DNA of 5,282 nt from a virus. Lineage: Duplodnaviria; Heunggongvirae; Uroviricota; Caudoviricetes. A program made the position numbers and the translations under genes. The stretch spans positions 1 through 5,282 of the IMG/VR virus record IMGVR_UViG_2654587792_000026. One strand, given 5' to 3'. Positions 43-120 of this stretch are shown piece by piece (position 1 is the stretch's first letter; each line of letters begins with the position of its first letter). The notes beneath the pieces are model-generated. The model saw only the letters and a program-made list of their open reading frames with translations, was not told where the DNA came from and searched no databases.

Positions 43-120
43 TCAATAAGTTGGAGTCATTACCAACTCATACTGCTCCGGTGTTTTAGCATTACCAGCT
101 TTTATGTTCTTTAAGTGCAT
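43..120 (-). pseudogene. Start of a tail-fibre assembly (Tfa/U-type) gene, apparently truncated after ~25 codons
   Basis: ATG at 120-118 lies 4 nt downstream of the fibre cassette stop (127-125). Manual translation gives [25 protein letters not shown] followed by TGA at 45-43. From memory, an MHLKNI...EQY start is the conserved N-terminus of Mu U / e14 TfaE-type assembly proteins, which are far longer than 25 aa. A shifted frame is open from ~67 to the window start, so a frameshift or continuation off-window cannot be excluded. Confidence 0.35.

Follow-up and report, generated by a model that had tools for sequence, protein, structure and literature searches.

Invertible tail-fibre segments are known from phage Mu (the G segment, with the invertase Gin and the gene pairs S/U and S'/U'), from phage P1 (the C segment, with Cin) and from e14 (the P segment, with Pin). 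In these systems the gene for a serine invertase adjoins a 26-bp crossover site that lies within the fibre reading frame, and the C-terminal part of an alternative fibre is encoded without a promoter, with an assembly gene of its own downstream, in the orientation opposite to the expressed arm. The need for a phage-encoded chaperone has been established for lambda Tfa, Mu U and P2 G, all of the Caudo_TAP family (PF02413), and disruption of prophage genes by IS1 is routine in Escherichia and Shigella. Tail fibres usually need a phage-encoded chaperone in order to fold (PMC9608196).

The DNA analysed here, referred to as the window, is 5,282 bp long and comprises the whole of draft contig JHTM01000208.1 (GCA_001506145.1), reversed. 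Its nearest relatives are E. coli prophages; among sequenced phages, Escherichia phage P88 and other Xuanwuvirus records come closest. With this P88 group (Xuanwuvirus, Peduoviridae) the window shares its gene order and ∼95% DNA identity over the tape-measure gene (T), the gpU gene (U) and the invertase gene. The full layout seen in the relatives begins with the baseplate genes J and I, the fibre gene H and tfa; these are followed on the other strand by a second assembly gene, tfa', and an N-terminally incomplete fibre cassette, and then by the invertase gene. Beyond the invertase gene come U, T, E, tube and sheath on the other strand, and finally D and ogr.

The right-hand part of the window carries two of these tail genes, both on the minus strand. 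An intact P2 gpU-like tail protein of 162 residues is encoded at 1994–2482 (PF06995, 5e-39), and the exact protein is very common. The tape-measure gene (2495–5282; PF10145) is cut by the right end of the contig; comparison with the N-terminus of the tape-measure protein in L001, an intact relative from E. coli TUM14668, places the cut 9 codons past the start, where the relatives begin MKTLDIRVA/FSAVDRL... (the stroke marking the break). No IS sequence is present at this end (window 5200–5282), and the break was probably caused by sequence common to another P2-like prophage in the same genome. In L001 and L003–L018 the sheath-tube-E-T-U block runs opposite to the baseplate and fibre genes and to gene D, converging on the invertase gene (in L003, 4904–10489 as against 3637–4746 and 13224–17563); we take this block to be inverted relative to the gene order of P2.

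The invertase gene (1375–1965, plus strand) encodes an apparently intact serine DNA invertase of the Gin/Pin/Cin/Hin type, 196 residues in length, in which a resolvase catalytic domain (PF00239, 2e-50) is joined to a C-terminal helix-turn-helix domain (PF02796 HTH_7, 3.5e-13), and the gene adjoins the variable segment. A protein of identical sequence is present in 152 blocks of the collection, and the prophage surroundings are the same in every case. Next to it, at 1295–1320 on the plus strand, is a 26-bp invertase crossover site, TTCCTGTAAACCGAGGTTTTAGATAA, which is the single exact match in the window, none being expected by chance, and which we take to resemble the gix site of Mu. The site is contained in an inverted-repeat arm that bounds the invertible segment (∼1239–1324). 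Window 1239–1324 aligns to both arms of the inverted repeat of L001, a repeat of 93 nt and 89% complementarity that brackets two cassette/tfa pairs, and the one crossover site on the contig likewise matches both L001 arms. We conclude, from sequence comparison, that the window probably carries part of an invertible host-range segment of the Gin/Pin type, borne by a prophage of the P2 family. It differs from the Mu, P1 and e14 segments in that the host is a P2-family prophage, in that one arm and one crossover site are present on the contig, and in that the assembly gene of the silent arm has been broken by IS1.

Between the crossover site and tfa' lies a promoterless, silent variable tail-fibre cassette of the Sv' type (125–1312, minus strand), the translated frame of which is open from the crossover site to a stop at 127–125, a distance of ∼395 codons; the ORF list gives it as a 354-residue ORF at 125–1189 on the same strand. 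The cassette has no constant N-terminal part of the fibre, and for this reason we assign it to the silent arm, the broken tfa' being the chaperone gene of that arm. Compared with the corresponding cassette of L001, which is annotated as a phage tail protein with a missing N-terminus, it is 71% identical overall, its first ∼175 and last ∼70 residues being nearly identical and its middle (window ∼353–691, minus strand) being ∼83 residues longer and divergent relative to the closest relatives. No Pfam match was obtained for the cassette. The exact 354-residue protein is found in the public collection only on JHTM01000208.1. In contrast to the conserved tail and invertase genes, the cassette and the tfa stub together (window 65 to ∼1238) have no DNA match of at least 85% in the phage collection, and this, with the longer divergent middle, sets the window apart from the P88 group. 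The cassette may be a recombinant receptor-binding variant.

All relatives that carry this cassette type have a tail fibre assembly gene directly downstream, and the start of such a gene is found at the equivalent place in the window. One nucleotide past the cassette stop (127–125), and on the same strand, begins an ORF that occupies 43–123 (minus strand), with a GTG start at 123, an in-frame ATG at 120 and a TGA stop at 45–43; it encodes 26 residues from the GTG or 25 from the ATG. A reading made from the sequence alone (the sequence-only reading) had described here a Tfa-like start directly after the fibre cassette, interrupted by TGA 45–43 after ∼25 codons from ATG 120, and these coordinates are borne out. 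Residues 1–20 of the ORF are identical at 19 of 20 positions to the N-terminus of intact 175-residue tail fibre assembly proteins encoded in L001 (3532–4059) and also in L003, L004 and L008. At the DNA level three intact tfa starts align collinearly with the window, beginning at the cassette stop and reaching through ...CAGTATGAGTT, and the TAA-N-ATG-ATG arrangement of the cassette/tfa junction is the same in the window and in its relatives. The intact L001 protein matches the Pfam profile PF02413 (Caudo_TAP) with E = 8e-37. From these alignments we conclude that the ORF at 43–123 begins as a genuine Tfa and that the likeness is no chance resemblance, in agreement with what the sequence-only reading had proposed.

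The native part of this ORF, as judged by DNA alignment and protein match, is the 5' stub of a type-A tfa at 65–123 on the minus strand; aligned to the intact genes, it comprises 18 codons and 2 nt from ATG 120. Its N-terminal 19–20 residues and its position after the fibre gene are those of the Caudo_TAP family, to which lambda Tfa, Mu U and P2 G belong. In the intact L001 protein, however, the Caudo_TAP domain corresponds to residues 40–175, of which the window has none, only residues 1–19/20 being kept. The stub is therefore a truncated remnant of a member gene, a gene fragment and not a member able to function.

Small differences from the relatives are seen within the stub. In window 76–123 the first start codon of tfa' is GTG, where the relatives have ATG, and residue 15 is proline, where they have leucine. 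In all, 5 of 59 nt differ from L001, which is too few sites to judge relaxed selection.

On the far side of base 65 the DNA belongs to IS1. Bases 1–64 (plus strand) are the last 64 nt of the 768-bp element and comprise the 3' end of insB and the right terminal inverted repeat; the remainder of the IS1 lies off the contig. The last 15 codons of insB, encoding the InsB C-terminus (HDKVIGHYLNIKHYQ, then stop), occupy 2–49 in frame 2 of the plus strand, and the annotated IS1 transposase CDS in the reference copy L002 ends at the base equivalent to window 49, so that the InsAB' coding end adjoins the terminal repeat. The right terminal inverted repeat, at 42–64, reads GGTAATGACTCCAACTTATTGAT on the minus strand (64–42), and this ∼23-bp repeat sits at the exact boundary with the flanking DNA. 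In the complete 768-bp IS1 it matches the other end (…ATCAGTAAGTTGGCAGCATCACC) at 18 of 23 positions, the two forming an imperfect inverted repeat. Of 5,426 complete E. coli genomes, 4,940 have copies annotated as IS1A/IS1B family transposase that show 100% identity to the first 70 bases of the window. Two points had escaped the sequence-only reading: an IS1 end makes up bases 1–64, and at the window edge a draft contig breaks off within that repeat.

Similarity to tfa ends exactly at the 65/64 boundary. After ...TATGAGTT (base 65) the relatives read AACAAAGAAACACGG..., whereas the window reads GGTAATGACTCCAACTTATTGATAG...; put another way, the window follows intact tfa through ...CAGTATGAGTT and is IS1 from GGTAATGACTCC... 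on. When the whole window is compared with the 5,426 E. coli genomes, query base 65 is the first base of every prophage match. Translation that begins at tfa' runs into the right inverted repeat of IS1 and for this reason stops after 7 foreign codons at TGA 45–43, the last 7 codons of the ORF (…L-VMTPTY) and its TGA being derived from that repeat. The junction and the truncation are directly visible in the contig, which represents the majority state of one culture only. On the evidence of these alignments, tfa' of a P88/P2-family prophage has almost certainly been cut by IS1 at window 65/64, and no observation speaks against this junction. The locus shares with IS1 (IS1A/IS1B) disruptions in Escherichia and Shigella an identical terminal 64 bp, the right inverted repeat, the insB stop, an exact junction and a truncated gene; at the one end of the element that is visible it shows no difference from them, and this insertion site is absent from the 5,426 complete E. 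coli genomes. The truncation of tfa is ordinary IS-mediated prophage decay, and the earlier suggestion that the interrupted gene was a sign of decay is upheld by the finding of an IS1 end inside it.

The layout from left to right is IS1, tfa' stub, Sv' cassette, crossover site and invertase gene. Since only one crossover site is present in the window, its partner and the expressed arm of the fibre would be located on the far side of IS1, which would place the IS1 inside the invertible segment. IS1 is multicopy per genome and short reads cannot cross it, so that the left edge of the window is an assembler break; re-sequencing, which had been proposed for this region, would give the same result if done with short reads.

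The form of the event depends on what lies beyond the visible IS1 end. We favour simple insertion of IS1 into tfa' as the probable form, in which case a 9-bp target duplication, GTATGAGTT, and then the rest of tfa' (AACAAAGAAACACGG...) would be expected on the far side of the element. In the other form IS1 would mark the breakpoint of an IS1-mediated deletion or rearrangement, by which the window would have been separated from the remainder of tfa', from the other fibre arm and perhaps from a large part of the prophage. The two forms of the IS1 explanation differ only in what lies beyond the element, and we consider the second rather unlikely, while noting that the contig does end within IS1, with the far side out of view, and that IS1 without target duplications is found beside truncated genes elsewhere, as in L002. 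Partners for recombination would also be many, the median genome in the E. coli comparison having IS1 at 10 places and some genomes at more than 60. Set against this, the window contains no positive evidence of a deletion, the genes that are in view, those for the invertase, gpU, the tape measure and the cassette, are intact, and a recent simple insertion fits them equally well. In the L002 example (NZ_CP103739.1) the reference IS1 at 497–1276 has no matching flanking duplication, its 12-nt flanks being different, and directly beside it the gene for a CoA:oxalate CoA-transferase is cut short; this copy exemplifies a deletion associated with IS1.

The join itself could in principle be an assembly artefact, in which the assembler joined the 64-bp IS1 tail to the contig by mistake and the real genome has an undamaged tfa'. 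The junction does coincide with the end of a contig assembled from short reads, and it was found nowhere else: none of the 5,426 complete E. coli genomes covers it, and neither an exact 50-nt pattern nor a relaxed 36-nt pattern spanning it found a match in the genome or metagenome contig collections. The join coincides, however, with the very first base of the terminal repeat of IS1, as real transposition gives and as a random misjoin would give only by chance. With de Bruijn assemblers, moreover, a contig that ends a k-mer's length, or a few dozen bases, inside a multicopy repeat is the normal mark of a true repeat boundary. We therefore regard a misassembly as extremely unlikely.

The sequence-only reading had suggested that tfa might be complete but for a frameshift or sequencing error, and might run on in a different frame as far as the window edge. 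This has a negligible likelihood: one minus-strand frame is indeed open from position 66 to the edge, but its translation, VGNDSNLLIVFYVQIMPDDFVM, comes from IS1 read antisense and bears no relation to the Tfa continuation of the intact relative, the second minus-strand frame is full of stops, the Tfa frame itself ends at the TGA, and the DNA downstream of base 65 is 100% IS1 and not tfa, so that no single indel can restore a full-length protein. Along the lines of the check proposed with that suggestion, the three minus-strand frames of 1–126 were translated, and none continues as Tfa; three-frame translation, DNA alignment and IS1 identity agree in refuting a shifted-frame continuation.

Disruption of tfa' by IS1 has a probable consequence for the switch of which it is part. 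Were the segment to invert, the cell would make the alternative fibre but not the Tfa that belongs to it; the fibre would then probably fail to fold, and one of the two host-range states would be disabled. The other arm, the invertase and the visible tail genes would be unaffected by the IS1. It had been suggested that the cassette is non-functional for want of its cognate chaperone; the chaperone gene is indeed broken, and the alternative fibre is probably non-functional after inversion, the second point being our inference from the first. One of the two tail-fibre specificities is probably no longer available to the prophage.

A more elaborate possibility is that the IS1 insertion is a retained change, which, by disabling the chaperone of the alternative arm, locks a domesticated P2-like tail or prophage into one receptor specificity. 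Each inversion would then give fibre-less, non-adsorbing particles, and the switch would turn phage or tailocin activity on and off in a phase-variable manner and would not change the host range. We consider this very unlikely, and return to ordinary decay by IS1 as the preferred reading. There is nothing new in kind at the locus, IS1 disruption and paired fibre/tfa invertible segments both being known already. That tfa is cut short reflects a genuine disruption by IS1 and no sequencing error, and the finding carries little weight beyond annotation. For genome scans the lesson is that IS ends at contig edges should be recognised before frameshifts are proposed.

Two types of Tfa are found among the relatives. 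The type-A N-terminus recurs in L001, L003, L004 and L008, with at least three type-A alleles among these four loci, and a type-B Tfa (MHLKNITAGNPKTKEQYQL...) is found on the other arm of the same invertible segment. Type B has only part of its N-terminal and middle sequence in common with type A, and it might partly substitute for the lost type-A protein. A-type and B-type tfa occur on either arm among the relatives (L003 compared with L008), a distribution that, as judged from these sequences, is consistent with inversion in this prophage family.

Other variants of the same prophages show further changes in the fibre region. In L017 (CP024278.1, 8441–8973) the type-B tfa of the silent arm is split by a frameshift into ORFs of 83 and 99 residues, and decay of the silent chaperone copy is thus recurrent in the prophage family, by a different route. 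In L006 a sopE-type effector gene (12587–13309; PF05364/PF07487) is located in the fibre region, where the fibre genes are disrupted; L006 has the prophage backbone of the other relatives and is a cargo variant resembling SopE phages.
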